Assembly: GCA_964556665.1 (NCBI GenBank)
Contig: CAZKXU010000004.1
Coordinates: 1 to 62,197, forward strand
Length of the DNA: 62,197 nt
Source of the DNA: an uncultured Bdellovibrionales bacterium
GTDB taxonomy: Bacteria; Bdellovibrionota_C; UBA2361; CAZKXU01
Direction of reading: 5' to 3'
Positions within the stretch are counted from its first letter, which is position 1; every line of letters begins with the position of its first letter. The notes beneath the pieces were generated by a model, which saw only the letters and a program-made list of their open reading frames with translations, was not told the origin of the DNA and did no database searches. Both the position numbers and the translations under genes were made by a program. Shown piece after piece: positions 61 to 58,807 of this stretch.

Positions 61-211
61 ACTGGGACCGCAGGACGCGCTTGGGCAGTGCATAGCACTG
101 CCACCAGGCAGCGTAAGACATTTAGCTTCCTTAAGTCAGCGCTAAGCGCCGTCCAGCCTGCAAACAAATTAGTTGGCATTTCGTTGCGTGCTGGAAACCC
201 GCAGCCCCAGT
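61..211. repeat. Degenerate REP doublet with expanded left-arm loop
   Basis: ACTGGGACCGCAGG at 61-74, CCAGCCTGC at 153-161, 24-nt spacer, inverted degenerate arm GCGTGCTGGAAACCCGCAGCCCCAGT at 186-211. Confidence 0.5.
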
Positions 212-230
212 AAGACGGTAAGAACTTATA

Positions 231-725
231 TTAAAGTGCGTTAGTATGTTTGCAAGGTAGTAATATTATTGGCTTCTCCTGATATTTCTCGGCCGTAACA
301 ACACTTATAGCCTGGTTCAAGGCATGTATATACTTCGCGATTCGGCTAAATTCCCTTAAAAAGGCCAGTAGATACTCACGCTCATCACAGCCACCAAAAA
401 ACGGATTGTCTAAGCCCATCAAGGTGAGCTGTGTAAGTCTCTTATCGACTAGCCTAGCAATGTCGATCCAGAACTCGAACTGAATGCGTTCTTTTATCGA
501 TAGTCCATGCCGCCAAAGAAAAATATCCCGCTCAGTCTCGGCTAAAAACCAAATACCTCCCTGTGATTCCAATTTAGGCAGTTTGTCTGCCAAAGCACCC
601 TCGATCTTGCTTACTGCAGCGAGCAATAGGCAACTCTGAGACAGCGTTTTCCTGCAAATCTGTAAATTTTGTACACAGCTGTACAAAGATGCACTGGTAC
701 TCGTTTCTGGTGGCGTAATAAACAT
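231..725 (-). CDS. Hypothetical protein (164 aa)
   Basis: Only long ORF in the interval; no recognisable motif. Confidence 0.5.
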   Translation of the reverse strand: MFITPPETSTSASLYSCVQNLQICRKTLSQSCLLLAAVSKIEGALADKLPKLESQGGIWFLAETERDIFLWRHGLSIKERIQFEFWIDIARLVDKRLTQLTLMGLDNPFFGGCDEREYLLAFLREFSRIAKYIHALNQAISVVTAEKYQEKPIILLPCKHTNAL

Positions 726-993
726 TTGAGATTACTATTTATTTTATAAAGCGCTGCGAGGATTGCTGTATATCAGCAAGTTTGAAGCCAATATGGGCAT
801 TGTATCCTATTAAGCAGGGAGCGTTAAGAGCCGATTTTACACATGTGGTGTTGTATAGTCCTTTTCAAACGTAACTTTTAGAAAAGACTATATCCTCCGT
901 AGCTTTAGCGAAGGAGCATTATACTGAGAGTGGTGATATTTATGAATATCTCCATAATATGACGTTTCCGATTAATCAGTAGGTCCCTAAATT

Positions 994-2502
994 ATGACAG
1001 AAACAATCTCGCATAAAGACACGGTCATGATTGTAGATGATGATCGTCTCAATAGGATCTGCATGAAGGCTATGCTGGAAGGTAAGGGGTACAACGTAGT
1101 GCAAGCCACAAACGGTTATCAGTGTATAAAGCTATGCAAAGCAAATCCACCATCGATAATTTTGCTTGATGTGATTATGCCTGGAATTGATGGCTTGGAT
1201 GTTTGTAAAGAACTCCGTAAGCAATATACTCCCGAGGAGTTGCCAATCGTTATTGTCAGCACTAAAGGCAGCGGGCCTGAATTAGCAAATGGACTGAAAG
1301 CAGGTGCTAATGATTATATCACCAAACCTGTTGATCGCTATGCCTTGCTTGCGCGCTTAGAAGTACAGCTCAGAAGTTCACGCCTGTTCATGGCAAATAG
1401 GGAGAATCAGAGGAAGCTTGATCAGACCCTTAAACTTATGTATGCCATGGGCACGGTCCTGCCGGAGGCAGTTGCAATTGCCGGTGAGGGTGGGGAGATC
1501 CTCTATTACAATAAGCTTATCTTCAAGCTTTGTGGTGCGCAGATGCCCGCAAAAATCGAAGATATACATCGAAAGATCTTTGAGGGCTCAATGGATGGCA
1601 TTCACGCCCAGATGCGAGACGTGATCTTAGATAACCAGTTCTTGGTTATCGATCAGGAGTATGAGGCCATGGCTAAGAGGAAGCTACGAATTCAGGTGGT
1701 ATCCGAGCCTCTATTAATCGACAGTAATAATAACTGTAGGCTTTGGCTGTGGCGTGACTTTACCGACATGCGAGAGCTTGAAGGTGCCTTATTGGAGAAA
1801 TCCAAATTGGAAACCATGGGTGTTTTTGCCTCGGGCGTTGCCCATAATTTTAACAATGTCCTTGGCGGCATATCAGGTGCAACAGGCGCACTTTCCAAAC
1901 TTACAAAAGATAATGAGCGTGCACAGAAACTGATCGTTATGATCGAGAAGGGTGTTGACCGCGCCTCAAAACTAACAAATAAAATCTTAGGATTTGGAGA
2001 TACTGCAACTGAGGATGCTAATAAAGCATACGGTGATTTAATCCACGTTATTAAAGATGTACTCCGCATACAGGATGAGCTACACGAGCATCGCATTCTT
2101 GCTAGCGCCAATTACAGCACTGAGTCTTTACTGGTGCGAGTCCCGGCTATTCAGCTATACGATCTTATTAACAATGTTGTCAGTAATGCGTTCGAAGCGA
2201 TTAAAGAACGTGGAGAGGTTTCAATTTCAACAGCTATAAAACCTGGAGACACCCATGTTGAGGTGCATATTGTCGATAACGGCATAGGCATGGATCAGGA
2301 CACCCTGAAACGGCTGCGCGAGCCATTCTTTTCAACAAAAGCCATGGACGTAGAGAACGGTATCAGTATTGAAGGTCACGGCCTTGGTCTTTGGTGGGTA
2401 CACAACGTGCTTAGGATCTGTGGAGGCGAGATCGAATTCAATAGTGAGTTAGAAGAGGGGACTGAGGTAACGATTACACTCCCGTTGCTTAAGGAATGTT
2501 AA
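994..2502 (+). CDS. Hybrid response regulator/sensor histidine kinase (REC-PAS-like-HisKA-HATPase)
   Basis: N-terminal receiver (IVDDD, LLDVIMPG, KP), H-box GVAHNFNN, N box NNVVSNAFEA, G1 DNGIG, F box FFSTK, G2 GHGLGL. Confidence 0.88.
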   Translation: MTETISHKDTVMIVDDDRLNRICMKAMLEGKGYNVVQATNGYQCIKLCKANPPSIILLDVIMPGIDGLDVCKELRKQYTPEELPIVIVSTKGSGPELANGLKAGANDYITKPVDRYALLARLEVQLRSSRLFMANRENQRKLDQTLKLMYAMGTVLPEAVAIAGEGGEILYYNKLIFKLCGAQMPAKIEDIHRKIFEGSMDGIHAQMRDVILDNQFLVIDQEYEAMAKRKLRIQVVSEPLLIDSNNNCRLWLWRDFTDMRELEGALLEKSKLETMGVFASGVAHNFNNVLGGISGATGALSKLTKDNERAQKLIVMIEKGVDRASKLTNKILGFGDTATEDANKAYGDLIHVIKDVLRIQDELHEHRILASANYSTESLLVRVPAIQLYDLINNVVSNAFEAIKERGEVSISTAIKPGDTHVEVHIVDNGIGMDQDTLKRLREPFFSTKAMDVENGISIEGHGLGLWWVHNVLRICGGEIEFNSELEEGTEVTITLPLLKEC

Positions 2503-2529
2503 TATACATTCATAGTTTTTAAGATTACC

Positions 2530-2665
2530 TTTATTTCTAGTCTTAATCTTTGTCCTAGCCTTCGTCTTCTCCCGGATCAGGGCTAGAACGAAGAATCCGG
2601 ACAAGATCAAAGACGAGGACGAAGGCGAGGATTAGGATTAAGATAAGGACTGGGAATAAGAATCA
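2530..2665. repeat. Imperfect inverted repeat built from 6-nt periodic units, between convergent genes
   Basis: Left TCTTAATCTTTGTCCTAGCCTTCGTCTTC (2541-) pairs with right GACGAG-GACGAA-GGCGAG-GATTAG-GATTAA-GA (2612-2643); inner CCGGAT/ATCCGG. Confidence 0.65.
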
Positions 2666-2742
2666 CCAAAATCACTATGATTTTCTGTACTAGTGGGAGG
2701 TATATAGGCTGCCCCTACGATTTTACCCACACTTTTTAACAG

Positions 2743-3138
2743 TTACGGATCCATCTTGTCTCTACAGTGCTCATAAAGCAAAGCCTGTACAACTTTTTTA
2801 CTAAGTGTGTGCTTACTTAAATAAGTCGTTATCCCAACCTCTTGTCCTTCCGCCCAACCTTCTCCAGTAGCATTGGCTGTAAAAGCTATAATAGCACCTT
2901 GATATCCAGCAGATCTGACCTTCTTAGTCAGCACGTGGCCGTTCATCTCAGGCATCCTGATATCTATAATCATCATATCGAAGGGAGTGCCAAGCTGTAG
3001 CTGAGAAAGAGTAGCATCGAGTGCCTGTGCACCGCGACTGACTGCTGTTACAGCAGCTCCAGCGCGCTCAAAAAACTCCTCTAGCATGAGCAAAATAGAT
3101 GGATCGTCATCAACTATTAGTACTCTAGGTCTCGTCAT
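2743..3138 (-). CDS. Single-domain response regulator (CheY-like receiver)
   Basis: VLIVDDD, IIDIRMPEMNG, FTA and YLSK receiver motifs; 131 aa. Confidence 0.9.
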   Translation of the reverse strand: MTRPRVLIVDDDPSILLMLEEFFERAGAAVTAVSRGAQALDATLSQLQLGTPFDMMIIDIRMPEMNGHVLTKKVRSAGYQGAIIAFTANATGEGWAEGQEVGITTYLSKHTLSKKVVQALLYEHCRDKMDP

Positions 3139-3257
3139 TTGATTATTGTAAAATCATTTGCCTCTACTTAGGCCTGCATCAGGCTGATGCAGCAATTTCT
3201 GTTCTATCTTCCAATTTGGTTTATTCCTTGTCAATATCCTGCTATATTTGACAGGAA

Positions 3258-4421
3258 ATGGGCAAGGAAGTTCCTCCTCAATCTCTTCGTATATGTCATC
3301 TAGCTGATATTCACCTTGGATATCGCCGCTATAACAGGATGGCAGGAGGTGGTGCTAATCAGCGAGAGGTCGATATTAATAACGCCTTCCATGAAGCTAT
3401 TGAAAAGGTAATAAAGCTTAAGCCGCATATCGTAATAATAGCCGGAGACCTTTTCCATCATGTACGACCTTCAAATGCGGTTGTGACTTTCTGCTTTCGA
3501 GAGCTTAGACGTTTAGCGATGGCCGTCAGCAGGATAGTAATTATAGGGGGTAATCATGAAACCCCTAAGCGTTCAGATACTGGGTGCGTCCTTAGACTAT
3601 TCTCAGAAATTACAGGTGTACATGTAGCCGATACTAACATTGAGCAATTCAATTTTCCTGAGATAAGCACAAATGTATGTTGTTTGCCTCATGCAGCTTT
3701 GTTTGACAAAACAGATCTGCGGCTTAGGGCAGATGACCGGTGTAAATTCAATATCCTTACAGTGCATGCACAGGTCGATGAGACATGGATGAGTGACTTT
3801 GGCGGCGTAGAACTTGACCTCAAAAAACTAAGTCCACATGAATGGGACTATATCGCATTAGGGCATGTGCATTTATACCGCGGCGTAGCGCTAAATGCTT
3901 TTTATGCCGGATCAATCGAACACACAGCAAGCAATATTTGGGCAGAGGCTGGTCAGTCAAAAGGTTTTCTTGAGATAGAACTGCCTAGCTTAGCCAGAAA
4001 ATTCCACACGCTTACATCTCCTAGAGAGGTCATAGTCGCAGAAACTCTTGATGCCCGCATGTTAACTCCACAGGAGGCATCAGAACAGATCAATCAGAAA
4101 TTGTTAAAGATACCTGGTGGAGTAGATGGAAAGATAGTGCGTCTTGAAATTCTAAATATTCCTCGTGAAGTTGTAAGACTCCTTGATTATAAAGGAATAA
4201 AGCGCTGGAAAAACTTGGCATTAAATCTAACTCTGGAATTCAAAGGGCCAGATCGACAGGATTCACGTCAAGCCTTCTCTAGTACTGCACGCGGCACATT
4301 AGAGGAGCAGCTAGATCAATATACTAAAACCTATACAAGTGAAAGGCATCATAGCGATGAGTTTACAGCGTTGTTTAAGAGTTATTTTCAGAAACTAGAG
4401 ATAAAAGAGGAGCTGCGATGA
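3258..4421 (+). CDS. sbcD: SbcD/Mre11-family nuclease
   Basis: Metallophosphoesterase motifs DIHLG, AGDLFH, GNHE, HA, YIALGHVH; overlaps the downstream SMC ATPase gene. Confidence 0.9.
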   Translation: MGKEVPPQSLRICHLADIHLGYRRYNRMAGGGANQREVDINNAFHEAIEKVIKLKPHIVIIAGDLFHHVRPSNAVVTFCFRELRRLAMAVSRIVIIGGNHETPKRSDTGCVLRLFSEITGVHVADTNIEQFNFPEISTNVCCLPHAALFDKTDLRLRADDRCKFNILTVHAQVDETWMSDFGGVELDLKKLSPHEWDYIALGHVHLYRGVALNAFYAGSIEHTASNIWAEAGQSKGFLEIELPSLARKFHTLTSPREVIVAETLDARMLTPQEASEQINQKLLKIPGGVDGKIVRLEILNIPREVVRLLDYKGIKRWKNLALNLTLEFKGPDRQDSRQAFSSTARGTLEEQLDQYTKTYTSERHHSDEFTALFKSYFQKLEIKEELR

Positions 4422-6511
4422 GGCTAGCTTCTCTCTACCTCTGCAATTTCAGGCAGCATGCATTAACAGAGATTCAATTTGAATCAGGTATCACTGGAAT
4501 ATTCGGGCCAAACGGCGCTGGCAAAAGCAGTTTGGTTGAGGCAATAGCTTTTGCGCTCTATGGCGTCCAGGCAATACGAGGGAATCTTGCTGACTTAAAG
4601 AGACGAGGCTGTAGCGCACGTGATCCATTCGAAGTAAGACTCGTCTTTGAACATGACAACATTGTTTACAGAGTCGAACGCGGCATTAGTGACGGCAAAC
4701 TATTCATCGCTGGAGCTGACAAGCCGATTACCAGTAATAACCGTGAAACTACAGCGGCAATCGAAAGATTATTACGGCTTAACTACGATGAATTTATAGC
4801 TTCATATTATACAGAACAGAAAGGATTACAGTTCCTAAGCGGTCAAAAAGGTGCGACAGAACGTGAAAAATTTATTATGCGGATGATCGGCTATGACCGT
4901 CTCGAAAAGATTCAGGAGTTATTGAGGGAGGATCGTAAATCTAAGCGTAGTGAGTTGCAAGGCATCGAGGCAGGCTTAGGAACTAGACAGGAACTTGAGA
5001 GCTGCCTAAGAGTAGAGATGGAGCATCTAGCATTGGCTGAGGAAAGTTATAAGAACTCAAGCAAAGTATTGAAAAATGCTGACTTAGAGGTATTAAGATT
5101 AAAAGGCGAATATGACAAACTTGAATCACAAAAACTAAAGTTCGATAAGCTTCTGGCAGACATTGAGAGGATAACAATTTTAACGCAGCAGCAGGGCAAG
5201 AGGCGAGAATCTATTCTGCAGGATCTTGATGAGATGCCCAGCCTAGATGCGTTAGAGGAGCTAATCTCTCAGAGCCGTTTAGCGCTCTTAAAGCTGCGTA
5301 CAGAGATACAGCAGCTTGAGACTGAGACACAAGCAGAGCAGTCCTTATGGAGAGAGCGAACGGTTAAAATCGAAGCGGAGCTTGCGACTCTAAGTGAGAA
5401 AAATCATGAACTAACTGAACGCGAGAGAAACTATACGGCATTAAAAGAGAACGCTCCTTGTCCTACCTGCGGTAAGGAATTAGGCGCAGAGTTTCATGAT
5501 GTGAAGGGGCATTTAAGAGTAGAGAGAGAGAGTCTAGCCGAACATATATCTATGCTCTACTCGGAGCTTAAAGTTCTGAGCACTGAACCTGAGATGCTAA
5601 TAGAGAAGAAAGTAAAACTTTCATCGGCAAAGAAATCGCTCGCCGTTCAAGAGTGTGAAAATGCGAGCTTAATTGAACGTCGAGCGAAGCTTGAAGGGGT
5701 AAGACTCCTGCAAGCTGAACTTTCTCGTATTGATGACGAGCAGATAGAGTTAAATAAAAAAAGAGCCGCGCTTGATGATGAGCTTTCTGAGCTTTCATTT
5801 AAGGCGGATCTATACACTAGAACAAAAGCCGGATATGAGGCTGCCATGCGTTTATTGGAGGTCTCACGACTTCAAAATACAAGAGCAGAAGGTGAGCATG
5901 AGATGTACCGCTCTTTAGTGGAAAGAGCGCGGGCAACCTTAGAACAGTATGATCAAAGACGTGCTTCATTACAAAGTCTAAAGACGGAGCTGGTATTACT
6001 TGAGGAAGGGGATGCCTTACTCACTAACTTTAGACGGGACCTTAACTCTACCCTAAGACCCCGGCTTGCTGAACTCTCTGGAGAGTTCCTGGCGGAGCTA
6101 ACTGATGGTCGTTATAACACAGTCGAAGTACAGCCGGATTTTACTCCAACAGTTGTTGAAGATGGGGATCCGAAAGCAATTATTAGTGGAGGTGAGGAGG
6201 ATATTTTGAACCTTTGCGTGCGGCTAGGCTTATCTACATTGGTATCCGAGCGAGCTGGGCACACCGTTTCGCTTCTGGTCCTAGATGAAGTTTTTGGCTC
6301 ACTAGATGAGTTTAGACGTGCTAACGTTCTGGTATTATTAGAGCAGTTGCGGAAACGTTTTGAGCAGATCCTCATTATTACCCATATGGATGATATTCGA
6401 GAGAGCATCCAGAACGCTATCTACGTTGATTACAATCACTCTTTAGATCAGGCGGTCGTAAGAAAGGTTGAGGCTGATTTTCTTATAGAAGGCAGAGTAG
6501 TCAATCTGTAA
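4418..6511 (+). CDS. sbcC: SbcC/Rad50-family SMC ATPase
   Basis: Walker A GPNGAGKS, coiled coils, zinc hook CPTCG, signature ISGGEE, Walker B LVLDEVFGSLD, ITH. Confidence 0.88.
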   Translation: MRLASLYLCNFRQHALTEIQFESGITGIFGPNGAGKSSLVEAIAFALYGVQAIRGNLADLKRRGCSARDPFEVRLVFEHDNIVYRVERGISDGKLFIAGADKPITSNNRETTAAIERLLRLNYDEFIASYYTEQKGLQFLSGQKGATEREKFIMRMIGYDRLEKIQELLREDRKSKRSELQGIEAGLGTRQELESCLRVEMEHLALAEESYKNSSKVLKNADLEVLRLKGEYDKLESQKLKFDKLLADIERITILTQQQGKRRESILQDLDEMPSLDALEELISQSRLALLKLRTEIQQLETETQAEQSLWRERTVKIEAELATLSEKNHELTERERNYTALKENAPCPTCGKELGAEFHDVKGHLRVERESLAEHISMLYSELKVLSTEPEMLIEKKVKLSSAKKSLAVQECENASLIERRAKLEGVRLLQAELSRIDDEQIELNKKRAALDDELSELSFKADLYTRTKAGYEAAMRLLEVSRLQNTRAEGEHEMYRSLVERARATLEQYDQRRASLQSLKTELVLLEEGDALLTNFRRDLNSTLRPRLAELSGEFLAELTDGRYNTVEVQPDFTPTVVEDGDPKAIISGGEEDILNLCVRLGLSTLVSERAGHTVSLLVLDEVFGSLDEFRRANVLVLLEQLRKRFEQILIITHMDDIRESIQNAIYVDYNHSLDQAVVRKVEADFLIEGRVVNL

Positions 6512-6697
6512 TTATTCTTATACTGACGCAGAGCCTTACAATTCAGTATTCGCCCTCGTTTTTAGATGCAACATACTTTTAGATCGTACCATAACTATTA
6601 CTAGATACTAATTTGATTTGCATTCAGACTTGTATTGGCACTCGCCATCGAAGTCTGCAATCAAGGGGTTTATTTTGCTTTTATCAAAGGTTATTTT

Positions 6698-7549: not shown

Positions 7550-7578
7550 TCTTATAGCTGAACCACTATAGACTCAGA

Positions 7579-7610
7579 GGAGATGGCCGACAAACGGCCA
7601 TCTCCGTTTA
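7579..7610 (+). terminator. Probable intrinsic terminator
   Basis: 11-bp perfect stem GGAGATGGCCG/CGGCCATCTCC followed by GTTTA, 30 nt after the collagen gene stop. Confidence 0.6.
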
Positions 7611-7655
7611 ACCAAAAAGCTAATAGATATTACCTCTCCATCGTAGTATATAAAG

Positions 7656-13015: not shown

Positions 13016-13091
13016 ACTGGAACCTCGGACATATTGCCAACAACTTATCCCCATTCAGCACGTTTGCGGGCAAGATGCCCGCGGTCCCAGT
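13016..13091. repeat. REP doublet (REPIN-like)
   Basis: Degenerate left arm 13016-13041, 24-nt spacer, right arm GCGGGCAAGATGCCCGCGGTCCCAGT 13066-13091. Confidence 0.8.
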
Positions 13092-14292: not shown

Positions 14293-14368
14293 ACTGGGAC
14301 CGCGGGCTTCTAGCCCGCAACGCAGCTCCTTCAGGCTCGTTTGCGGGCTAGAAGCCCGCGCTCCCAGT
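14293..14368. repeat. REP doublet (REPIN-like)
   Basis: ACTGGGACCGCGGGCTTCTAGCCCGC 14293-14318, 24-nt spacer, inverted copy 14343-14368. Confidence 0.92.
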
Positions 14369-16134: not shown

Positions 16135-16159
16135 GTAGGGGCAGATGGTAATCTGCCCC
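16135..16159 (+). repeat. Single GTAG-type REP-like palindrome
   Basis: GTAG overlapping a perfect 9-bp stem GGGGCAGAT-GGTA-ATCTGCCCC. Confidence 0.5.
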
Positions 16160-16256
16160 AGGTGCGAGCGGCAGCTCGCACAAGCCTGGCCTTAATTGGC
16201 AATTATAAATTTAGGACGGCGAATTTCGACTTTCCCACTGATTGTATTTATATTTT

Positions 16257-16920: not shown

Positions 16921-19221
16921 CTATCTAAATGACTGTGTCTCGCCGCGCGGCTGGAACTTTAGATCACTTAGCTCTCTTGTTCCAAGCGACTCATCCTGAT
17001 GTAAATCGATCTCATCATCGACGTTAAACACTTTAGCCCCTACCAGTCCAAAGAAGGTAAATGCGTATTTAAAATAGACCTGCGTCTTAGGTGCCACAAT
17101 CTGCATGGAGAGGATATCCCCTGTGTCCTCCCTGCATGCTCCAAGATGATCCCCATCATGGTTACGTAGATGAGCATCTACTGCGCTTTCACCCACTTCT
17201 AGAGTTATCCCTATACCTGAACGGCCATTTGGATAATGACAGATTGTCACCTTCTTCTCCTCTACTACTGCTGTTGCTGTTGGAGGAACCGCTGTTGCAG
17301 TTGGTGGGATAGGGGTGTTTGTTGGTCTAGGAGTCGCTGTCGGAGGGACCGGCGTAGCAGTAGCCTCTTTGCCGCCACTCTTGCCACTTTTACCATCCTT
17401 TCCGCTTTTGCCACTATTATCATCCCCTTTCACGCTGGTACTGGTTGGAGGCGGCACGGGCGTATTCGTTGGCTTCGCAGTTGCAGTTGGTGGAATAGGG
17501 GTGTTTGTTGGTTTGGGTGTAGCTGTTGGAGGGAGCGGCGTAGCAGTAGGCGGGACTGTTGTAGGTGTCGCTGTTAGAGGTACGCATGGTCCATAATAGT
17601 CGTTCGGATGATTCGGAATATGACCACTAACCCCACTAGTAGCTATCTCAAGAGTATTCCCGAGATCTGAACTCCCTGTTCTATGACAGATTACGACCTT
17701 GGCAGCAGGCGCAAATCGCACCTTATCCGGATCGAAATACCCTAAATCCGGACTCCCATGTGGCCCTCCGCTCTTACCACTCTTGCCACTTTTCCCATCA
17801 TCTCCTCCATCCTTTCCACTCTTACCATCATCATTGCCTCCACCAGAGTTCCCACTTTTACCGCTCTTACCACTCTTCCCGCTTTTTCCACTCTTGCCAC
17901 TTTTGCCATCATCTTCCTCCCATGGCTTGCGGTAACTCCCTTCATCTCCGATAAAGGTAACGGTATTCTCACCAACAATATTTAGTAAAAACTGCCCTGG
18001 CCTCTCTCCATTGTTTACAAAATTCCCTACCGGAATCGGTCCTGCCTCAATTGTCCCGACATATACTGTTACTTTTCCGTCAGCAGGGCTCGGATTAACT
18101 ACCAACTTTGCAGTATCCTCGATCGTTAGCTTACTAAAATAGTACCCAAATGCTGTAGTCGTAAGTGTCAAAGTCTGTCCACTCTTAATTTTCACCTCTC
18201 CCCAACAACGGTTGGCAGCTGCATTTCCGGTGACAGTTAAGGTCGTGCTTGTGGATATCTCTATGTTCCCCTGATCAGATGGACAGTAAACACTCCAACT
18301 ATCAAATACAGGCAGATCAGGCACTTCGCAGCTTGAGCCGCTACAGCTCTCACCTACAGTTGGACAGCCCTGTATAAAATCATCACAAACTTTTGACTGT
18401 GCTAGTATTTTTAATCTATCCTTACTATTTACCTCGCCGTAAACTGTACTCTTTTTATCAAGAGTTAAAGAAAGATTCGATGCTGCATTACCATATGGCC
18501 GTCTGCTTTGCTGAGTGTAAGGACCTACGGCTGAGTCATAGGAATCATGTATAACATTTGAAAATGTTAGATCATCAACCCCGATCATGGCTCCCATAGA
18601 GTCATATACAAGCTCACTCATGATATAAGCTGTAAGCTGCATGCCGGTGTTAAGATCGGTCATCGCATCAACTCGAAAAACCGGATAAAAATCTGTAGTC
18701 GGAGGCTGCGCTGGAGGGTTGCCATAATCTGCTGCTGCTGTCACAGGAAGAACGTCTACTAATGTGAGGCGCACAAACCCTGGGAAATCTTGTATTTTGA
18801 AATCCGCTGCTGCATCAAATGAGGCACCAGTGCTGGTATTAGAGGTAACAGGGAATGCAGCCGTAGCAAGATCAACAGTGTCTGTAAGAATAGCAGAGTT
18901 ATTACTGTCCTTAATCTTCACCTTTGTGGGCACTGTGAACTTTGTATCGTTAGCACCCACAGAAGGGGCTGTTCTTTCGAAGTTGTTATAAAACTTAGCT
19001 GCTGAAAAGGGGGATACTAAGTTTTTTGAATTTGAGCGCAGCCAATTAAGAACCTGCGAAAGCCCGTTTTCAGAAAGATAGATTCTAGTCGCCTTTTTTT
19101 CACCGAAAAGGGACATGCGTAAATTAGAGGAGGAGAAACTTAAGGCGCTAGCGATGATCACTGAAGCTAACAAGAGAAAGATCAGGTATCCTAGAAGAGT
19201 ATTCCCGTTTTTTTTCATCAT
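16921..19221 (-). CDS. PilX/TadG-like pilus-associated protein with low-complexity insertion
   Basis: N-terminal pilin-like TM helix, last gene of a prepilin cluster, beta-rich C-terminal half, GKS repeats, PT-rich repeats, two ICH...H..H..C mini-domains. Confidence 0.65.
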   Translation of the reverse strand: MMKKNGNTLLGYLIFLLLASVIIASALSFSSSNLRMSLFGEKKATRIYLSENGLSQVLNWLRSNSKNLVSPFSAAKFYNNFERTAPSVGANDTKFTVPTKVKIKDSNNSAILTDTVDLATAAFPVTSNTSTGASFDAAADFKIQDFPGFVRLTLVDVLPVTAAADYGNPPAQPPTTDFYPVFRVDAMTDLNTGMQLTAYIMSELVYDSMGAMIGVDDLTFSNVIHDSYDSAVGPYTQQSRRPYGNAASNLSLTLDKKSTVYGEVNSKDRLKILAQSKVCDDFIQGCPTVGESCSGSSCEVPDLPVFDSWSVYCPSDQGNIEISTSTTLTVTGNAAANRCWGEVKIKSGQTLTLTTTAFGYYFSKLTIEDTAKLVVNPSPADGKVTVYVGTIEAGPIPVGNFVNNGERPGQFLLNIVGENTVTFIGDEGSYRKPWEEDDGKSGKSGKSGKSGKSGKSGNSGGGNDDGKSGKDGGDDGKSGKSGKSGGPHGSPDLGYFDPDKVRFAPAAKVVICHRTGSSDLGNTLEIATSGVSGHIPNHPNDYYGPCVPLTATPTTVPPTATPLPPTATPKPTNTPIPPTATAKPTNTPVPPPTSTSVKGDDNSGKSGKDGKSGKSGGKEATATPVPPTATPRPTNTPIPPTATAVPPTATAVVEEKKVTICHYPNGRSGIGITLEVGESAVDAHLRNHDGDHLGACREDTGDILSMQIVAPKTQVYFKYAFTFFGLVGAKVFNVDDEIDLHQDESLGTRELSDLKFQPRGETQSFR

Positions 19222-30504: not shown

Positions 30505-31497
30505 TTACTGACTAGGGACGAATAGATAATTACTATTTGAAGGGACGGAAGGTTTAAAAACTCCACTTGGCCATTTAACCTTAAAATCGCCCTGCAACCA
30601 TCTCTCATAGCATCTACGACATTCCTTACATATTTCGTAAAATTTCGCGATTATTGCGGTCCGTAATTCAGCCACAGATGATAGAACAAATACTTTGCGA
30701 CTCTTCTTCTTTGGTTGATGCGGCTTCAATATAGGCTGCGAGCGTAGTTTGGAGATCCCCATCACAGGCGTAGTTCGTTTTTGCCTTGCTTCCTCTTCAT
30801 TATGTTTAATTTGCTCTATAATTCGGCGATTAATCCCCTCGACATCATTAGGACTTACAGACCCAAAACACTTCATCCAGAGGTTAGGATTGCGGCGTAA
30901 TATCTGAGTTTCTTTATTAGCCTTTCTAATTAGTCGTAATAAAGCCCTATCTTGATCAAACGTTAGTACGTGAGAAGGTGCCTTAGGTATTGTTGGTAAT
31001 CTAATCCAAGGGACAGTCTCCTTGGTTTCAGCTTCTAAATCACCTATCGAGCACTTAAATCCTCGCCAGCTTGAGTATCCCGGAAACACTTCTATGCTAT
31101 CTACTAAGTTATCCAGCGCTGGATTTGAATATAGATAAGCTATCTGTTCTATTGCCTTATCCAAGTCAGCGATAAGTGCTACATGAGGACGTCCTTCCCA
31201 AATATTAAGGTAATCGAGGCCAAGTAGTCTTTTTAAACTATCTGTAATTTTTTTCTGTACCTCACAGTAAAAGTTTGAACATTGGGCCTTATCTTTTGCT
31301 ACTATTATAATGTGTGGATGAGATCCTTCCCAGATATCGTGACATAATATGACTTTGTCATCACGCTGGGTACGAGCTAAACTAGAGGCAATTATCTCCT
31401 TTATAACATCATAAGCCACTAGTGGCAGTGTAGACCTTGCCCTAAAGCATATGTCATAACACCCACCTGATTGTATAAATCGCCGCATCCTAGCCAT
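30505..31497 (-). CDS. REP-associated tyrosine transposase-like (Y1/HUH, IS200/IS605 TnpA superfamily)
   Basis: HUH motif SHPHII, catalytic Tyr in AYLYSNP, FPGYSSW resembling YPWSS; SD AAGGTGA before ATG 31497. Confidence 0.78.
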   Translation of the reverse strand: MARMRRFIQSGGCYDICFRARSTLPLVAYDVIKEIIASSLARTQRDDKVILCHDIWEGSHPHIIIVAKDKAQCSNFYCEVQKKITDSLKRLLGLDYLNIWEGRPHVALIADLDKAIEQIAYLYSNPALDNLVDSIEVFPGYSSWRGFKCSIGDLEAETKETVPWIRLPTIPKAPSHVLTFDQDRALLRLIRKANKETQILRRNPNLWMKCFGSVSPNDVEGINRRIIEQIKHNEEEARQKRTTPVMGISKLRSQPILKPHQPKKKSRKVFVLSSVAELRTAIIAKFYEICKECRRCYERWLQGDFKVKWPSGVFKPSVPSNSNYLFVPSQ

Positions 31498-31750
31498 AGC
31501 TCTCACCTTAATAATAAATCAACTTAATCTCCCTCTTAATTATTCGGGGAAATTGGCTAAAAGTTTCTTCATAAAGTTGCCATGTACCAGTTCGAGGTAA
31601 AGTTGCCATGTACCAGTTCGAGAGGTGTATAAATCGCCGCATCCTAGCCATAGCTCTCACCTTAATAATAAATCAACTTAATCTCCCTCTTAATTATTCG
31701 GGGAAATTGGCTAAAAGTTTCTTCATAAAGTTGCCATGTACCAGTTCGAG
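31472..31750. repeat. 125-bp direct repeat plus three copies of a 25-mer
   Basis: 31472-31596 identical to 31626-31750; TAAAGTTGCCATGTACCAGTTCGAG at 31572, 31598 and 31726. Confidence 0.92.
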
Positions 31751-31773
31751 AGAGATATGATATAGAGCTTAGT

Positions 31774-41492: not shown

Positions 41493-41947
41493 CTTAAAGC
41501 TGTACAGAAATTAGATAATAAGTCTTGTAAATTTCTTATCCGTTCTGAGGGTACAGATTCCTCGCTCGGAGTATACTTTAAATTATCAAGATCGGCCATT
41601 AAGTTAGCTAATGACTCATGCTCATTATTAAGTGAGAGCAGTATCCGCCGAGCTTCGTCCGGTGCCATCTCTGCAAATGGCATATTAAGCTTACTGCCGA
41701 GCAGTCGCTTTACTAGGAGCATGATACGGGCAAGCTCTGTTTTTGTAATATGCTCTTTTGCTGTCACAACTTTAAGCTCGGTCATAACAAGATCAACGGG
41801 ATCAAGAGCTGCAGATCTTCTTCTTTTCCCTATATTAATCACTAGAAGCAGCGCCGCGATGGCAACAGCGAGTAGAACTAACCATTCAGTCATTCCTACT
41901 TCATATGGAAACTCCGGGATCGAAGTTATGTCGTATATATCTTCCAT
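41489..41947 (-). CDS. Small membrane protein of the Bat operon (DUF4381-like)
   Basis: DIYDI start, one TM helix, LKY near C-terminus; overlaps batA. Confidence 0.6.
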   Translation of the reverse strand: MEDIYDITSIPEFPYEVGMTEWLVLLAVAIAALLLVINIGKRRRSAALDPVDLVMTELKVVTAKEHITKTELARIMLLVKRLLGSKLNMPFAEMAPDEARRILLSLNNEHESLANLMADLDNLKYTPSEESVPSERIRNLQDLLSNFCTALR

Positions 41948-42090: not shown

Positions 42091-42166
42091 TCTGGGACCG
42101 CGGGCTTCTAGCCCGCATATGAATTTGCAGATGATCCGTAGCGGGCTGGAAGCCCGCGGTCCCAGT
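42091..42166. repeat. REP doublet (REPIN-like)
   Basis: TCTGGGACCGCGGGCTTCTAGCCCGC 42091-42116, 24-nt spacer, inverted arm 42141-42166. Confidence 0.92.
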
Positions 42167-48137: not shown

Positions 48138-48167
48138 ATTGACCGATAAGTAACGTTATCGGTCAAT
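48138..48167. terminator. Hairpin between convergent genes
   Basis: Perfect 12-bp stem ATTGACCGATAA/TTATCGGTCAAT, 6-nt loop. Confidence 0.5.
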
Positions 48168-48218
48168 CTTAATAGTAGCGCACGCACTTGAAGAAGGAAG
48201 TAGCGCTGTTAGATTACT

Positions 48219-50003: not shown

Positions 50004-50140
50004 TAACTACTCCTCCGTAAAAATCAAGGCTAATATACCATAAAGTGCATCTCTATCAAAGTTTACAGGACTTTTAATCACTGCCATACCTCATTTAACC
50101 TGTTGAAAAGTATCAACTGTTCGGGGTATTCTCTCCACTT

Positions 50141-53335: not shown

Positions 53336-55497
53336 TAAAGGAAGATATGCACACAGAAACTCATAGTTCAGAGAATATCGGTCACAGCAAACTAGAATAC
53401 CTAGACAGCGGCATAGCAGTAGTCCGCCTAGGAGATCCGAAGGAACGTGTCGTTACCTTAACTAAGGATCGCATGGCCTCATTAAGTGCGATTATTAAGC
53501 ATCTTAAGAATGAGAGACCTAAAGGGGTGATTATCTTAGGGCCCGGACCAGAGATGTTCACAGCCGGGGCCGACATTAACATGATCGGCAAAGTTACATC
53601 GATAGAGATTGGTGAGGGACTTGCGCGCGAAGGGCAGATCCTATTCGATGATCTTGAATCCCTTCCCTGCATTACTGTCGCCGCGATCAGCGGCCCATGC
53701 GTAGGAGGCGGCTGCGAACTCGTACTTGCGTGTGACTATAGAATTATAAGTGATCATAAGAATTCAATCATTGGACTGCCAGAGACAAAGCTTGGCATTC
53801 TGCCAGGCTTTGGCGGTACGCAGCGTTTGCCAAGATTAATCGGACTGCCTAAGGCCCTTGATATTATTCTAGCCGGCAAAACGCTTCGTCCTAAGCAGGC
53901 TAAGGCTGCAGGCCTTGTAGATGAAGTGATACCGTTTGAGGCCCTAAAAGATCGCGCCACGAAAATTATTCTTAACGGTGAAAAACGCCGCAGTTCAAAT
54001 ATTAAATTTTTGGACAAACTTCTTACCTTTACAGGGATCGGGAGATCTCTGATCAGATACTCTGCAGGTAAAGCTCTGCATAAGCAGACGCGCGGCTTCT
54101 ACCCTGCCCCGCCAGCGGCTTTAAATGCCTGTATATTCGGGCTAGAGAACGGCATGCAAGCCGGACTCAAGCATGAAGCGCGTGAGCTTGGCAGGATGAT
54201 TGTGACACCTGAATGCAAATCCCTTGTAAAGATCTTCTTTCTTACAGAGGCCTCTAAGGCGGTCGGTAAAGGCGCGCGCGATCTGGTTAAACACTCAAAC
54301 GTTGTGGTCATCGGCGCAGGGGTGATGGGAGCTGGCATAGCACACCTTTTTGCACAGAACGATAGCTCTGTTATTCTTAAGGATACAACAGAGGAGGCAC
54401 TCAGCCGCGGCGTCAAACACATTAAGGATGTCCTTGCTAAGGCTAAATACCTCTCAGATCAGGAGCGGAGCTTCATTCTTAATCGTGTAGAGATTACCAC
54501 CAAGGACTCACCAAACTTCTCTAACTCGCAGTTCGCGATTGAAGCCATCTTCGAGGATATGGATCTTAAAAAGAAGGTGCTGGCCGACGTTGCCTCCAAG
54601 ATGCCTGAAGATTCAATAATTTTAACAAATACAAGCTCACTCTCCGTAACGCAGATCGGTGCTGGCATTCCTAACCCGAGCAGGGTCGCAGGTATGCATT
54701 TCTTTAATCCGGTCGACAAGATGCCGCTTGTTGAGATTATACGCTCCGAGCAGACAACCGACCGGGTTGTGGCGATTGTAGCTGCTCTTACTACAAAACT
54801 TGGGAAATATCCGATCGTTGTAAGTGATGTGCCGGGATTCCTAGTAAATCGAATATTAACACCTTATCTAAACGAAGCTGGGTTTCTCCTGGCAGAGGGA
54901 TTTAGTATTGCTGATATAGATAAGGCTGCTGTCCGTTTCGGTATGCCGATGGGCCCGTTAAGGCTCCTTGATGAGGTAGGGCTGGATGTGGCTGCACATG
55001 TAGCGGAGGTTATGCTGAAAGGATACGGAGAGCGGATGAAAGCGCCTGAGTTTCCTAAGGCACTTAATACTCTCGGCAGAAAAGGGAGGAAAAATAATGC
55101 GGGCTTCTATGATTTTAAGGATAAAGAAGCAACTCCACACGCCGCAATCAGAGAGCTTCTAAAGATAAACACACCGGCTAAAACTGTCACGGACTTAAAG
55201 GAGATAGAGGAACGGCTGGTGATGAGTCTCCTTAACGAAGCGGTGCTCTGCCTTGATGAGGGAGTTGCAGGCTCACCGGGCAATGAAGCTGCTAACCAGA
55301 TCGATCTTGGAACAGTCATGGGGATGGGATTTCCTCCGTTTAGAGGGGGTATTATGCATTATGCCGACACTCTAGGTGCCAAGTCGATCTTGGAGCGGAT
55401 GGAGAGATTAAATAAGAGTTTCGGGCTCCGCTTTGAGTCGGCACCTGGAATTGCAAAACGAGCTGCTAGCGGCAGATCGTTTCATGAACAGGCTTGA
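53332..55497 (+). CDS. fadJ: Multifunctional enoyl-CoA hydratase/3-hydroxyacyl-CoA dehydrogenase (FadJ/FadB family)
   Basis: FTAGADI, GGGCELVLACD, PETKLGILPGFGG, GAGVMGAG, TNTSS, GMHFFNPV; start may be ATG 53347. Confidence 0.85.
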   Translation: MIKEDMHTETHSSENIGHSKLEYLDSGIAVVRLGDPKERVVTLTKDRMASLSAIIKHLKNERPKGVIILGPGPEMFTAGADINMIGKVTSIEIGEGLAREGQILFDDLESLPCITVAAISGPCVGGGCELVLACDYRIISDHKNSIIGLPETKLGILPGFGGTQRLPRLIGLPKALDIILAGKTLRPKQAKAAGLVDEVIPFEALKDRATKIILNGEKRRSSNIKFLDKLLTFTGIGRSLIRYSAGKALHKQTRGFYPAPPAALNACIFGLENGMQAGLKHEARELGRMIVTPECKSLVKIFFLTEASKAVGKGARDLVKHSNVVVIGAGVMGAGIAHLFAQNDSSVILKDTTEEALSRGVKHIKDVLAKAKYLSDQERSFILNRVEITTKDSPNFSNSQFAIEAIFEDMDLKKKVLADVASKMPEDSIILTNTSSLSVTQIGAGIPNPSRVAGMHFFNPVDKMPLVEIIRSEQTTDRVVAIVAALTTKLGKYPIVVSDVPGFLVNRILTPYLNEAGFLLAEGFSIADIDKAAVRFGMPMGPLRLLDEVGLDVAAHVAEVMLKGYGERMKAPEFPKALNTLGRKGRKNNAGFYDFKDKEATPHAAIRELLKINTPAKTVTDLKEIEERLVMSLLNEAVLCLDEGVAGSPGNEAANQIDLGTVMGMGFPPFRGGIMHYADTLGAKSILERMERLNKSFGLRFESAPGIAKRAASGRSFHEQA

Positions 55498-55532
55498 TAA
55501 CTGTATATAGTTAAAATTTTATTTCATTACTT

Positions 55533-55988
55533 ATGCCTCAATCAATTCAGGATCTGATAGGATCTGAAAATCATTGCCACGGTTGTGGCCCAAACAATAA
55601 TAAGGGCCTGAGGCTTAAGAGCTATTTTGAAGGGGATGAAACAACTGCTAGTTTCACTCCGGAGCCGCATCAGTGTGCAGGAGCGGTAACAATTGTTAAC
55701 GGCGGCGTGATCGCTTCCTTAATAGATTGTCACTCTGTTAATACCGCGATGGCTTGGGAGTATAAAAACGCTGGGCGCGCAATAGGATCTGAGCCTAAAA
55801 TTTGGTGCGTCACTGCATCCCTCAATGTTACCTATTTAAAGCCCACACCCATAGACAAGAGGCTTGAATTACGCGCTAAGGTTTCAAAAAGAGAGGGACG
55901 TAAAACCTGGATTGAGTGCACACTCTCTGCTGCCGGTGTAGTATGTGCTAAGGGAGAGGTACTCGCAGTTAGGATTGAACGTAGCTAA
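55533..55988 (+). CDS. PaaI-family thioesterase
   Basis: CHGCGPNNNKGL, NGGVIASLIDC, TASLNVTYLKPTP hotdog-fold motifs. Confidence 0.85.
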   Translation: MPQSIQDLIGSENHCHGCGPNNNKGLRLKSYFEGDETTASFTPEPHQCAGAVTIVNGGVIASLIDCHSVNTAMAWEYKNAGRAIGSEPKIWCVTASLNVTYLKPTPIDKRLELRAKVSKREGRKTWIECTLSAAGVVCAKGEVLAVRIERS

Positions 55989-55993
55989 CTCTT

Positions 55994-56071
55994 ACTGGGA
56001 GCACGGGCTTCTAGCCCGCTTGATCTAACTTGCAACAGAGCTCAAGCGGGATGGAAGCCCGCGATCCCAGT
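55994..56071. repeat. REP doublet (REPIN-like)
   Basis: ACTGGGAGCACGGGCTTCTAGCCCGC 55994-56019 and GCGGGATGGAAGCCCGCGATCCCAGT 56046-56071. Confidence 0.9.
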
Positions 56072-56097
56072 AAGGAAAATTTTTATCTGTTATAACA

Positions 56098-56481
56098 CTA
56101 CGCTGCAGCTCTTACTTTGGATGCCCAGATCTGTCGCATGCGGATTGTAGTGCCGGCATAACTTTTTTCTACATTATCTACGATCTTGGCTAAGGTAAGC
56201 ATCTGCTGCTCATTTAACTTTGAGGGATCAGGGAGAATTGATAAAAAGGTAGAGACAATATCTTTCTCGGAGACTAGATACTTAGCTGCCTTTGAAAAAT
56301 CACGTGAAAGAGAAACGATATCAAAGATTACATTATTTTTTACAGCTTGATCTAACTTATGTGCTAGCTCTCTTATGATATAATGCACTAAATCTGGGTA
56401 GACCTCTCCTGGATAGTGCGCGATGCCGTAGCACCACCCTTCCATTTCAATCTCAAAGATCTCTTTATTCTCGTTTTTCAT
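56098..56481 (-). CDS. Hypothetical protein (127 aa)
   Basis: Start overlaps upstream stop (TAATG). Confidence 0.65.
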   Translation of the reverse strand: MKNENKEIFEIEMEGWCYGIAHYPGEVYPDLVHYIIRELAHKLDQAVKNNVIFDIVSLSRDFSKAAKYLVSEKDIVSTFLSILPDPSKLNEQQMLTLAKIVDNVEKSYAGTTIRMRQIWASKVRAAA

Positions 56482-56678
56482 TACTCCTGACCTCTTAGAC
56501 CAAGAACATCTTTAACACGAGCTGCCGCTATAACACCGATAGTTCCTGCCGCCAGTGCACATTTTGCTGCAGCCATTAGTCTAGCTGGCTCTAATTGATG
56601 TAAGGATTGAGCGGCTGAAGGGGCCGCACCACTCTGCACAACTAAATCTTCCCCCGATGTACGTTCTGCCTTTCCCAT
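56481..56678 (-). CDS. Small hypothetical protein (65 aa)
   Basis: TAATG coupling with the next gene; hydrophobic Ala-rich C-terminal half. Confidence 0.5.
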   Translation of the reverse strand: MGKAERTSGEDLVVQSGAAPSAAQSLHQLEPARLMAAAKCALAAGTIGVIAAARVKDVLGLRGQE

Positions 56679-56809
56679 ATCTACTTTCCGTTATTGTAAC
56701 ACAGTTAGATTTACTACTATTAGGAAACTTTTTGCTTCCTAGAGATAGTTATGCAGAAACAACAAATAATGTGATGTGTTATTAAATGTAATGTTTTTAG
56801 ATAGTTAAC

Positions 56810-56890
56810 ACTGGGACCGCGGGCTTCCAGCCCGCAAACTTATTTAAAGCCATAACCCTGAGCGGGATGGACCATATACTCGGTCCCAGT
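56810..56890. repeat. REP doublet with decayed right arm
   Basis: Consensus left arm 56810-56835; right arm GCGGGATGGACCATATACTCGGTCCCAGT 56862-56890. Confidence 0.82.
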
Positions 56891-56893
56891 CTT

Positions 56894-57700
56894 TTATCCT
56901 CGCAACACCTTCGCCAACTCCACAAACTCCGCTATCGATAATGTTTCAGCTCTGCGGCCTCCATCTATTCCTACCGCGGCAAGAGCAGCTGGGAGCTTCT
57001 CTACCGGGAAGAGTGCGGTTCCTTTAAGACTATTTAGCAATTTGCGGCGGCGCTGCGAGAAGGCAGCTTTTACCACCATCTGGAAATGAAGCATATCATC
57101 AATTTTAAAGCGTGGTTCCTTAAGAAATGTTAACTCCAATAAGCGTGACTGGACTTTTGTCGGCGGATGAAACATCGTCCCTGGAAAAATCGGTCCAAGC
57201 CTCATATCAGCCCAAAGCTGCGCCGAGATTGAGAGCACTCCGTAATCTCTCCCGCCCGGAGGGGCTGCCACACGCTCTGCAAACTCACGCTGCAGCAAAA
57301 TTACGGCTCTCGTAATGGATGCTGCGTTTGCAATCAGATGAAATACAATATCTGTAGAGAATGAATACGGCAGATTACCAAAAACTGTAAGATTCTCCCC
57401 TATCTCCGAAAAATCCACGGCGCGCACATCACCTTCTAAAATATCTATATTAGGAAAGCGCAAATGAAGCGCATCGGCTAATTTCTCATCTATCTCAATG
57501 ACTGTAAGCTTTGGAAATACTGAAAGCCTCTCTGTTAAGGCTCCTAGTCCAGGACCTATCTCGACAAGTGTATCGGAGGACTGCGGTTTGCCGAATTCAA
57601 TAATCTCATCGATCAATCGATTGTCGATTGTGAAATTCTGTCCAAGACCTTTACTAGGTCGAACACCGAGATGGGCCAGTATATCTTTTGAGCGTGCCAT
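56894..57700 (-). CDS. rsmA: 16S rRNA m6,2A dimethyltransferase
   Basis: GQNF, EIGPGLG, EIDE, GNLPY, AFSQRRRKL. Confidence 0.94.
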   Translation of the reverse strand: MARSKDILAHLGVRPSKGLGQNFTIDNRLIDEIIEFGKPQSSDTLVEIGPGLGALTERLSVFPKLTVIEIDEKLADALHLRFPNIDILEGDVRAVDFSEIGENLTVFGNLPYSFSTDIVFHLIANAASITRAVILLQREFAERVAAPPGGRDYGVLSISAQLWADMRLGPIFPGTMFHPPTKVQSRLLELTFLKEPRFKIDDMLHFQMVVKAAFSQRRRKLLNSLKGTALFPVEKLPAALAAVGIDGGRRAETLSIAEFVELAKVLRG

Positions 57701-57732
57701 ATTTATATCACGTAAAGATTAGAGTAGCGGCA

Positions 57733-58743
57733 TTACCTCTCAAGCGGCCAGCGTGCACGCGCAATTAAATCTCCGTCACCGCGCTCACCTGCTTGCCATC
57801 TTAGCGCTGCTGCATATCCTATCATTGCAGCATTATCCACACAGTGCGCCATCGTGGGGAAAAACACAGCTGCCCCTGGAAGCGCCTTTAACCTGGCACG
57901 TAAAGAGAGATTCGCTGAGACTCCTCCACTGACCGCAACCTTTTTTACGCCGGTGCTAGCAATAGCTTTTGACAACTTAAACTGAAGAGCGTCCACAATC
58001 GCCTCCTGCACGGCGTATGCTATCTCACCTCTAAGTGACGGATTTGCTGATATCTCCCCTTTGTTTTTAGAGATTAGAAGCGCTATCGCTGTTTTTAATC
58101 CGGAGAAGCTAAATCCATCTGAATCCCGCATTACTTTAGGGAGAGAAAATCTGCTCTTAGCGGTACTGTCAGCAAGTGCCGCAAGCTTAGCACCGCCTGG
58201 ATAGGTAAAGCCAAGAAGATTTGCAGATTTATCAAAAGCCTCTCCGGCAGCATCATCTTTAGTTCGAGCGATTAATTCATAACTACCGATCTCTTTTACA
58301 AGCTGAATCTCCGTATGTCCGCCCGATACAACTAGCGCCAAAAATGGCGGCTGCAGCTCCTTATTATCCAACATACATGAGAAAATATGCCCTTCGATAT
58401 GGTTTATACCAAGCACCGGGAGATTATAAGCAAGTGCTAATCCTTTTACAAAATTTGTTCCCATTAACAAGCAGCCTTTAAGGCCAGGACCGCAGGTAAC
58501 CGCAAGCGCGGTAAGATCCTTTAACTGTATTTTCCCCTGATTTAATACTGAATCTGTAATCAACGGAAGATTTTTAAGGTGCTCCCGTGCCGCAAGCTCC
58601 GGCACTATACCGCCGTAAGCTTCATGGAGCTTTACCTGTGAGGAGATCTCCTCGGCCAGCACTGTAATCTCCCCCGCTTTAATACTGAGGAGCGCTGCCG
58701 CTGACTCATCACAGCTACTTTCGACCGCTAATAGTGTGACCAT
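57733..58743 (-). CDS. tsaD: tRNA N6-threonylcarbamoyltransferase subunit
   Basis: ESSCDES, PELAAREH, GPGL, HIEGH, SGGHT, DDAAGEAFDK, DNAAMI. Confidence 0.95.
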   Translation of the reverse strand: MVTLLAVESSCDESAAALLSIKAGEITVLAEEISSQVKLHEAYGGIVPELAAREHLKNLPLITDSVLNQGKIQLKDLTALAVTCGPGLKGCLLMGTNFVKGLALAYNLPVLGINHIEGHIFSCMLDNKELQPPFLALVVSGGHTEIQLVKEIGSYELIARTKDDAAGEAFDKSANLLGFTYPGGAKLAALADSTAKSRFSLPKVMRDSDGFSFSGLKTAIALLISKNKGEISANPSLRGEIAYAVQEAIVDALQFKLSKAIASTGVKKVAVSGGVSANLSLRARLKALPGAAVFFPTMAHCVDNAAMIGYAAALRWQAGERGDGDLIARARWPLER

Positions 58744-58772
58744 TTAATTTTTCTTCGGTAAGAATGACACCT

Positions 58773-58807
58773 ACTGGGACCGCGGGCTTCCAGCCCGCCG
58801 TCCCAGT
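58773..58807. repeat. Collapsed REP doublet (single hairpin)
   Basis: ACTGGGACCGCGGGCTTCCAGCCCGC followed directly by CGTCCCAGT. Confidence 0.85.

Follow-up and report, generated by a model that had tools for sequence, protein, structure and literature searches.

A family of REPIN-like inverted repeat doublets in a Bdellovibrionales contig and the recurrence of its arm in genomes labelled as about 12 phyla

We describe a short palindromic element that occurs at nine loci in a 62,197-nt stretch of DNA from an uncultured Bdellovibrionales bacterium (assembly GCA_964556665.1, contig CAZKXU010000004.1, positions 1–62,197), the whole of which is referred to here as the window. With a probability that we put at about 78%, each of the nine is a copy of a non-autonomous doublet of repetitive extragenic palindromes (REPs), or REPIN, of the kind moved by REP-associated tyrosine transposases (RAYTs). 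The REP/REPIN and RAYT reading is well supported, both by the anatomy of the unit and by its association with RAYT genes in other genomes.

An earlier note on this DNA had listed nine palindrome loci, and all nine are present at the positions it gave. Scanning both strands with the degenerate 26-mer ACTGGGASCGCGGGCTTCYAGCCCGC at up to three mismatches gave 12 half-units in the 62-kb window, compared with none in 100 dinucleotide-preserving shuffles, and the 17-nt hairpin core by itself shows the same excess. A Hamming scan of the window that allowed up to eight mismatches (shuffle mean, 0.4) found 16 recognisable half-units, all of them within the nine loci; three further weak matches with eight mismatches (at 26845, 32170 and 60439) are at chance level and are not copies. 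The intergenic placement described in that note is borne out, as all nine loci lie between open reading frames (ORFs). Its remark that most copies sit just past stop codons also agrees with the annotation: seven of the nine are 4–84 nt 3′ of a stop codon, and the other two (24641 and 42091) separate divergently transcribed genes.

Each arm of the unit consists of an 8-nt tag, CTGGGA(G/C)C, and a hairpin, GCGGGC-TTCYA-GCCCGC, with a 6-bp GC stem and a 5-nt loop; in the window copies the tag is preceded by A. Two such arms in inverted orientation, 24–26 nt apart, make up a unit of 76 nt, and direct reading confirms that the spacers are mostly of this length. The window unit thus has the conserved 5′ tag next to an imperfect palindrome that marks a REP, as well as the inverted pair with a short spacer that folds into a long hairpin. 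It departs from the canonical pattern in its tag, which in every window copy reads CTGGGASC where a GT[AG]G tetranucleotide would be expected. The earlier assignment to REPs, inverted doublets and RAYT-associated elements holds, except that the GGAG/GTAG tag proposed with it is replaced by CTGGGA(G/C)C.

As single-stranded DNA, the intact doublets are predicted to form near-perfect hairpins of about 26 bp (−29.2 to −44.5 kcal/mol, z −8.7 to −14.4), and the decayed copies fold much more poorly. The spacers are also related to each other. The spacer at 26497 and the reverse-complemented spacer at 42091 share 21 of their 24 bases, and the spacer pairs 55994 and 24641 (reverse complement) and 14293 and 13016 score above all 300 shuffles. 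Such homology between copies indicates that copying acts on complete doublets and not on individual arms, which is the hallmark of a REPIN.

We searched for the exact 25-mer CTGGGASCGCGGGCTTCYAGCCCGC in a collection with one genome per species; the counts are lower bounds. It occurs in at least 86 stretches from at least 45 assemblies, which bear the labels of about 12 phyla; the carriers are nearly all metagenome-assembled genomes (MAGs), and the taxon labels are those deposited in the record titles. The groups listed include Verrucomicrobia, Kiritimatiellae, Victivallales, Lentisphaeraceae, Planctomycetota, Chloroflexota (Dehalococcoidia and Anaerolineae) and Acidobacteriota, together with Alpha- and Gammaproteobacteria, Flavobacteriaceae, Binatia, Entotheonella, Treponema, Rubrobacteraceae and Armatimonadia. 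The hosts span 39–76% GC, and their flanking sequences bear no relation to one another. The layout of inverted doublets with variable spacers recurs in other genomes with the 25-mer, as do partner arms with compensated hairpins (e.g., GCGGGCATCTTGCCCGC, GCGGCCATCCTGGCCGC and GCAGGCTTCCAGCCTGC). The copies are therefore not confined to the window, and the description of the family as lineage-specific in the earlier note does not survive. The unit had no match among 2.9 million viral contigs and the doublet no real match among 72,556 plasmids, and the plasmid collection contains just two RAYT homologues, both distant.

Some of these genomes contain other arrangements of the unit. In the MAG of Verrucomicrobia bacterium UBA6982, which contributes 20 of the 86 stretches among the matches listed, four or five REP units form direct tandem arrays with periods of 51–67 nt and near-identical sequence between units (L035, 2913–3226; L079, 606–817; L053, 2030–2239; L054, 1501–1699). 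We considered whether two of them (L035 and L079) might be CRISPR arrays and rejected this, because the would-be spacers are near-identical; the arrays are amplified REP dimers in tandem. In a Rhizomicrobium MAG (L064, 362–1445), inverted REP units 1.1 kb apart frame a gene pair of AbrB/MazE-like and PIN (VapC-like) type; this segment was tried as a RAYT locus and set aside, since what it encloses is a VapBC-like pair. Clustering of all ORFs from the 86 listed loci in search of a recurrent neighbour gene returned only spurious frames across the repeats.

A RAYT gene flanked by this exact REP, which the earlier note had proposed to look for, was seen in other genomes. Among the fetched 25-mer loci, a tblastn search with Escherichia coli YafM identified two RAYT genes, although a narrow regular expression for RAYT motifs had given no match. 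In an Acidobacteriota MAG (L009), the RAYT ORF (1138–1743, 201 aa) has a REP doublet (1051–1113) 25 nt upstream, and a second doublet (1715–1777) overlaps its stop codon. In a Lentisphaeraceae MAG of 39% GC (L076), one unit lies just upstream of the RAYT ORF (5408–6034, 208 aa) and two more lie inside it, in frame and without breaking it, encoding LGARASSPQ (5537) and AGRMPALP (5855). The two proteins score 91.7 and 95.3 bits, respectively, against the NCBIfam model NF047646 (REP-associated tyrosine transposase; cut-off 80), and both also pass Pfam Y1_Tnp. They are 44% identical to each other and have exactly the same REP arm. The family comprises at least 7,676 proteins at E ≤ 1e-10, many of which bear the name RayT in their source records. 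When 18 members were aligned, the motifs MPNHxH and Y..xNPV and an N-terminal W..RGY.PH were retained, and the best solved structure for the family profile is E. coli TnpArep (PDB entry 4ER8, E 1.6e-12).

With respect to the ends of these genes, REPs commonly overlap the 3′ end of the called RAYT gene, and in many RAYTs the C-terminal peptide is specified by the REP next to the gene (AGFQPA, AGRMPALPG and SALPG repeats; P0009, P0013, P0076, P0082, P0094 and P0113).

The association extends to metagenomic loci. In a set of 80 such loci that encode this RAYT family, we defined the unit as CTGGGASC (up to one mismatch) followed by a perfect GC hairpin and lying within 300 bp of the RAYT gene; 40 of the 80 loci have it. 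The usual layout is that of a REPtron, with a plus-strand unit upstream and a minus-strand unit downstream of the RAYT gene, and nearly all of the closest 30 RAYT homologues have a tag-hairpin unit nearby. A perfect hairpin comes directly after 116 of the 477 tag matches in the 80 loci, compared with 4 of 477 after the downstream bases were shuffled, and this control constitutes the unbiased part of the hairpin evidence. The remaining loci are bordered by the same kinds of hairpin with the tags xTGGAGC, xCGGAsC, TAGGAGC or the canonical GTAGC, and at two of them (L153 and L145) the GTAGC tag is joined to exactly GCGGGCTTCCAGCCCGC or GCAGGCTTCCAGCCTGC. In a rough neighbour-joining tree of the RAYTs the tag types cluster, with a GTAGC group, a large GGGAsC group and TGGAsC/CGGAsC groups. 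The occurrence of GTAGC on an identical hairpin, together with this clustering, points to CTGGGASC as a variant within the GTAG-type REP superfamily. From the sequences compared, the tag and the RAYT enzyme appear to change together.

Conservation of the copies at orthologous sites, which had been set beforehand as a possible refutation, was not seen. The best named relatives of the methylmalonyl-CoA mutase (MCM) encoded in the window are from Oligoflexia and Bdellovibrionales MAGs at 75–80% identity, and none is closer. Three relatives (79–80% MCM identity) keep the gene order HIT, enoyl-CoA hydratase (ECH), acyl-CoA dehydrogenase (ACAD), MCM and B12, and no REP unit is present in 65 kb of their sequence; all three are without a copy. 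The ACAD–MCM spacer measures 135 nt in the window, the REPIN taking up 76 nt of it; in the relatives it is 5–28 nt long, which leaves no room for the unit. As both the units and the room for them are missing at the orthologous sites, conservation of this operon does not extend to the copies at 13016 and 14293.

A mechanism can be proposed for the REPIN reading. When the unit becomes single-stranded, for instance on the lagging-strand template, it would fold into a hairpin of about 26 bp or into two small hairpins. A Y1/HUH enzyme of the RAYT family, presumably encoded elsewhere in the chromosome, would recognise hairpin and tag and would cut and rejoin the single-stranded DNA, so that the doublet could spread to new intergenic sites. 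Copies would later decay, as may have happened at 13016, 56810 and 61, or collapse, as at 58773. This genome would then have such a RAYT, and its copies may still be moving and may, as the earlier note surmised, number in the hundreds genome-wide. A birth-and-death process that is still under way would fit the mixture seen here, with a perfect doublet, spacers that are nearly identical and some copies in an advanced state of decay, although the mixture does not prove it. REPs of E. coli have been reported to affect mRNA 3′ ends, and by analogy the copies just past stop codons may do so here, including effects on stability or attenuation in the ECH–ACAD–MCM cluster.

Several observations weigh against the REPIN reading. 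No RAYT of this clade is encoded in the 62-kb window, where the sole Y1-like ORF (30505–31506, minus strand, 333 aa) scores 23.7 bits (E 3.6e-5) against the REP-associated tyrosine transposase model; it is unlikely to be the cognate enzyme, as the match is weak, the motif is HPH and not HUH, and no element flanks it. It speaks for the reading that hairpin stems vary from locus to locus yet stay complementary (GCGGGC, GCAGGC, GCGGAC, GCACGC, GCGCCAC, GCCGCC and others), but this list of compensated stems is a selected one because hairpin detection required perfect stems. Furthermore, the syntenic relatives are distant (~80% protein identity), so the comparison with them shows gain or loss and not recent movement. 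One alternative is that the copies are fossil REPINs, spread by a RAYT since lost and now immobile, and either decaying or kept for the host as 3′-end stabilisers or attenuators of mRNA. This would account for the lack of a RAYT in 62 kb, for the four of nine loci that are decayed or collapsed and for the seven just after stop codons. However, a doublet perfect in both arms and 21 of 24 shared spacer bases argue for fairly recent copying, and a lone RAYT gene is not expected by chance in a sample of 62 kb; we consider the fossil alternative improbable.

Selection of the unit for a cellular function, as a conserved binding site for a host protein or a structural DNA motif with no part in mobility, would explain how one 25-mer is kept in so many assemblies and phylum labels and over such a range of GC content, and it suits the lack of matches in viral contigs and plasmids. 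We nevertheless regard it as very unlikely, given that the distribution is patchy within phyla, that close syntenic relatives of the window are without the unit, that the unit brackets RAYT genes and its tag co-varies with the RAYT clade, and that the copies carry homologous spacers that are non-functional. At 76 nt, with 26-nt terminal inverted repeats and intergenic positions, the element also resembles a MITE mobilised by cut-and-paste by the DDE transposase of an insertion sequence (IS). When the flanks of the nine copies were read directly, however, no common direct repeat and hence no target-site duplication was found at any of them; each arm is itself a tag with a hairpin, arms are seen singly and in direct tandem arrays elsewhere, and the associated gene encodes a Y1 transposase and not a DDE enzyme, all of which leaves the MITE alternative with hardly any probability. 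We give equally little credence to conserved intrinsic terminators, a structured small RNA or a CRISPR-like repeat, to which the strong hairpins, their position mostly after stop codons and the direct arrays with 51–67 nt spacing in the Verrucomicrobia MAG might point. No T-run follows the intact doublets, so these are not scored as intrinsic terminators; the only terminator match is at the decayed 56810 locus, on the strand opposite its flanking genes. Two copies lie in divergent promoter regions, and the element is missing at orthologous sites. An Rfam scan of the element found no family at threshold, and a permissive scan gave generic long-hairpin matches to eukaryotic miRNA models. Direct repeats with unique spacers, the mark of a CRISPR, are not what the window contains, its copies being dispersed inverted doublets, and the near-identical "spacers" of the direct arrays identify them as tandem REP dimers.

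Among known systems, the REPIN reading places the element closest to those of REPs and RAYTs. It resembles the REPs and bacterial interspersed mosaic elements (BIMEs) of E. coli with their transposase TnpArep (YafM; 4ER8), as well as the REPINs that Bertels and Rainey reportedly described in Pseudomonas fluorescens SBW25 in 2011, in that the enzyme is of the Y1/HUH family, its gene is bracketed by REPs as a REPtron and the doublet is the replicating unit. It differs from the E. coli TnpArep system in tag and hairpin, E. coli REPs having longer, bulged stems, and its RAYTs are 29% identical to YafM over the core. With the IS200/IS605 elements (ISDra2 and IS608) it shares a Y1 HUH transposase and subterminal hairpins in single-stranded DNA, and the structures 2XM3 and 2FYX are weak profile matches; unlike them, the element here carries no transposase, and the RAYTs score 16–26 bits against an IS200 model with a cut-off of 55.

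Also close are the short REPs of Pseudomonas and relatives, comprising the GTAG-1 families (Di Nocera 2013, PMC3733652) and the REPs of TnpAY1 subclass 2.5 (Quentin 2018, PMC6006769), such as GTAGGAGCGGGCCATGCCCGCGA. As in these, the tag is set off by unpaired bases from a 6-bp GC stem (GCGGGC/GCCCGC), and inverted doublets with spacers of 20–100 nt are extragenic and flank a RAYT gene. In contrast to them, the tag is CTGGGA(G/C)C where theirs is GT[AG]GGA, the loop here has 5 nt (TTCYA), the RAYT is lengthened at its N-terminus by ~90 residues that include the motif WHSRGYLPHFDG, and the arm is found in many phyla where theirs are in one order. TnpAY1 subclass 2.4 (PMC6006769) provides parallels to the double-foot form at 58773–58807 and to REPs in frame within tnpA, as in the L076 RAYT ORF; its REPs carry GT[AG]G tags, unlike the CTGGGASC of the unit described here. 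Neither CTGGGA, TCCCAG nor TTCCAGCC appears as such a REP in the manual REP table and supplements of Quentin 2018 or in the supplements of Di Nocera 2013, as far as the portions available to us extend, and within that scope the CTGGGA(G/C)C tag is not listed in these two surveys. A full-text literature search for the hairpin sequences gave no match.

The nine loci, none of which is assigned a strand, lie among ordinary chromosomal genes (including enoyl-CoA hydratase, acyl-CoA dehydrogenase, methylmalonyl-CoA mutase, LpxD-like, DnaJ-like, asparaginase, thioesterase, KsgA, TsaD and cytochrome c). Four are intact inverted doublets with spacers of 24–26 nt. At 14293–14368, both arms are without mismatch (left ACC, right AGC), the spacer is 24 nt and the DNA fold is −38.2 kcal/mol (z −9.5); the acyl-CoA dehydrogenase stop is 8 nt before and the methylmalonyl-CoA mutase start 53 nt after. 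The doublet at 26497–26572 is perfect, with both arms equal to the consensus and fully complementary (−44.5 kcal/mol, z −14.4), and has a stop 84 nt before it and the dnaJ-like gene 58 nt after it. At 42091–42166, between divergent starts at 41947 and 42222, the arms have one and zero mismatches. That at 55994–56071 has one and two mismatches and a 26-nt spacer and is flanked by convergent genes, 6 nt past the thioesterase stop and 27 nt past the stop of the minus-strand ORF 56098–56481.

Three doublets have one decayed arm. At 13016–13091, the left arm is decayed (eight mismatches) and the right arm has the variant hairpin GCGGGCATCTTGCCCGC; the enoyl-CoA hydratase stop is 14 nt before and the acyl-CoA dehydrogenase start 31 nt after. 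The doublet at 24641–24716, with ACAGGG...CCCTGT ends and a left hairpin shorter by 1 nt, lies between the divergent starts of an LpxD-like gene (24399) and an ORF (24806). In the third (56810–56890), the left arm is perfect and the right one decayed (GCGGGATGGACCATATACTCGGTCCCAGT); it lies 4 nt past the stop codon of the minus-strand gene for rRNA adenine dimethylase. The locus at 61–214 (154 nt) is an expanded, degenerate doublet with ends ACTGGGACCGCAGG... and ...CCCGCAGCCCCAGT; some 100 nt of unrelated hairpin-rich sequence separate its left end from the right arm GCGTGCTGGAAACCCGCAGCCCCAGT (four mismatches), and it is 17 nt past the stop of the minus-strand ORF 231–725. Finally, the collapsed double-foot locus at 58773–58807, which is placed between the cytochrome c gene stop and the tsaD start, is a single hairpin with the tag on both sides (ACTGGGACC-GCGGGCTTCCAGCCCGC-CGTCCCAGT). 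Quentin et al. 2018 (PMC6006769) trace the double-foot REP type to an inverted dimer from which the central part was deleted, and the form at 58773 is consistent with deletion of the doublet centre.

Other features of the window were noted in passing. The Y1-like ORF 30505–31506 lies in a pocket of 40% GC between clpB and acs. Its weak match to the RAYT model is full-length. The protein contains YLYSNP (Y...NP) and is extended far at the C-terminus; it has no match in Pfam or PDB, and no REP flanks the ORF. The first codons and upstream region of the ORF recur ~146 nt upstream as a direct repeat of ~108 nt (31490–31760), and this region contains a perfect tandem duplication of 26 nt at 31572–31622. 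In the spacer between the mutase and the B12-binding subunit (16135–16181), a canonical GTAG-tagged hairpin, GTAGGGGCAGATGGTAATCTGCCCC, is directly followed by the hairpin GTGCGAGCGGCAGCTCGCAC; the arrangement occurs once in the window and may represent a second REP family of this genome. A tandem repeat of 9/18/27 nt (CCACTCTTA-like, ~5.6 copies) is found at 17849–17908 within the 766-aa ORF 16921–19221 (minus strand). On the plus strand, an open frame (59957–62197) with 747 codons or more continues past the window's end. It opens with a signal of lipoprotein-like type (…LVTLFVATACNRGGGGG…) and has a GC content of 54–63%, compared with 45% for the contig, and several spurious ORFs overlap it in other frames.

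For this organism, the REPIN reading means that nine strong hairpins, several of them inside or at the ends of operons such as ECH/ACAD/MCM, are copies of a mobile element and not conserved regulators. The main interest of the family is the identity of its REP arm across phyla. In the current picture, REPIN populations are vertically inherited and lineage-specific. One 25-nt arm, shared by chromosomes labelled as about 12 phyla and by RAYTs that are 44% identical, with neither the arm nor this RAYT clade found on plasmids or viral contigs, could reflect a RAYT–REPIN partnership that has repeatedly crossed phyla without a known vector, or else a near-universal class of REP under very long selection. 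We advance this pair of possibilities tentatively and consider it rather doubtful; if true, either would run against that picture. If the sharing is due to transfer or to very long conservation, the loci assembled here would provide a concrete data set on the strict verticality of REPIN–RAYT systems and, as the type of tag co-varies with the RAYT clade, would open to study the way in which RAYTs read their tags.

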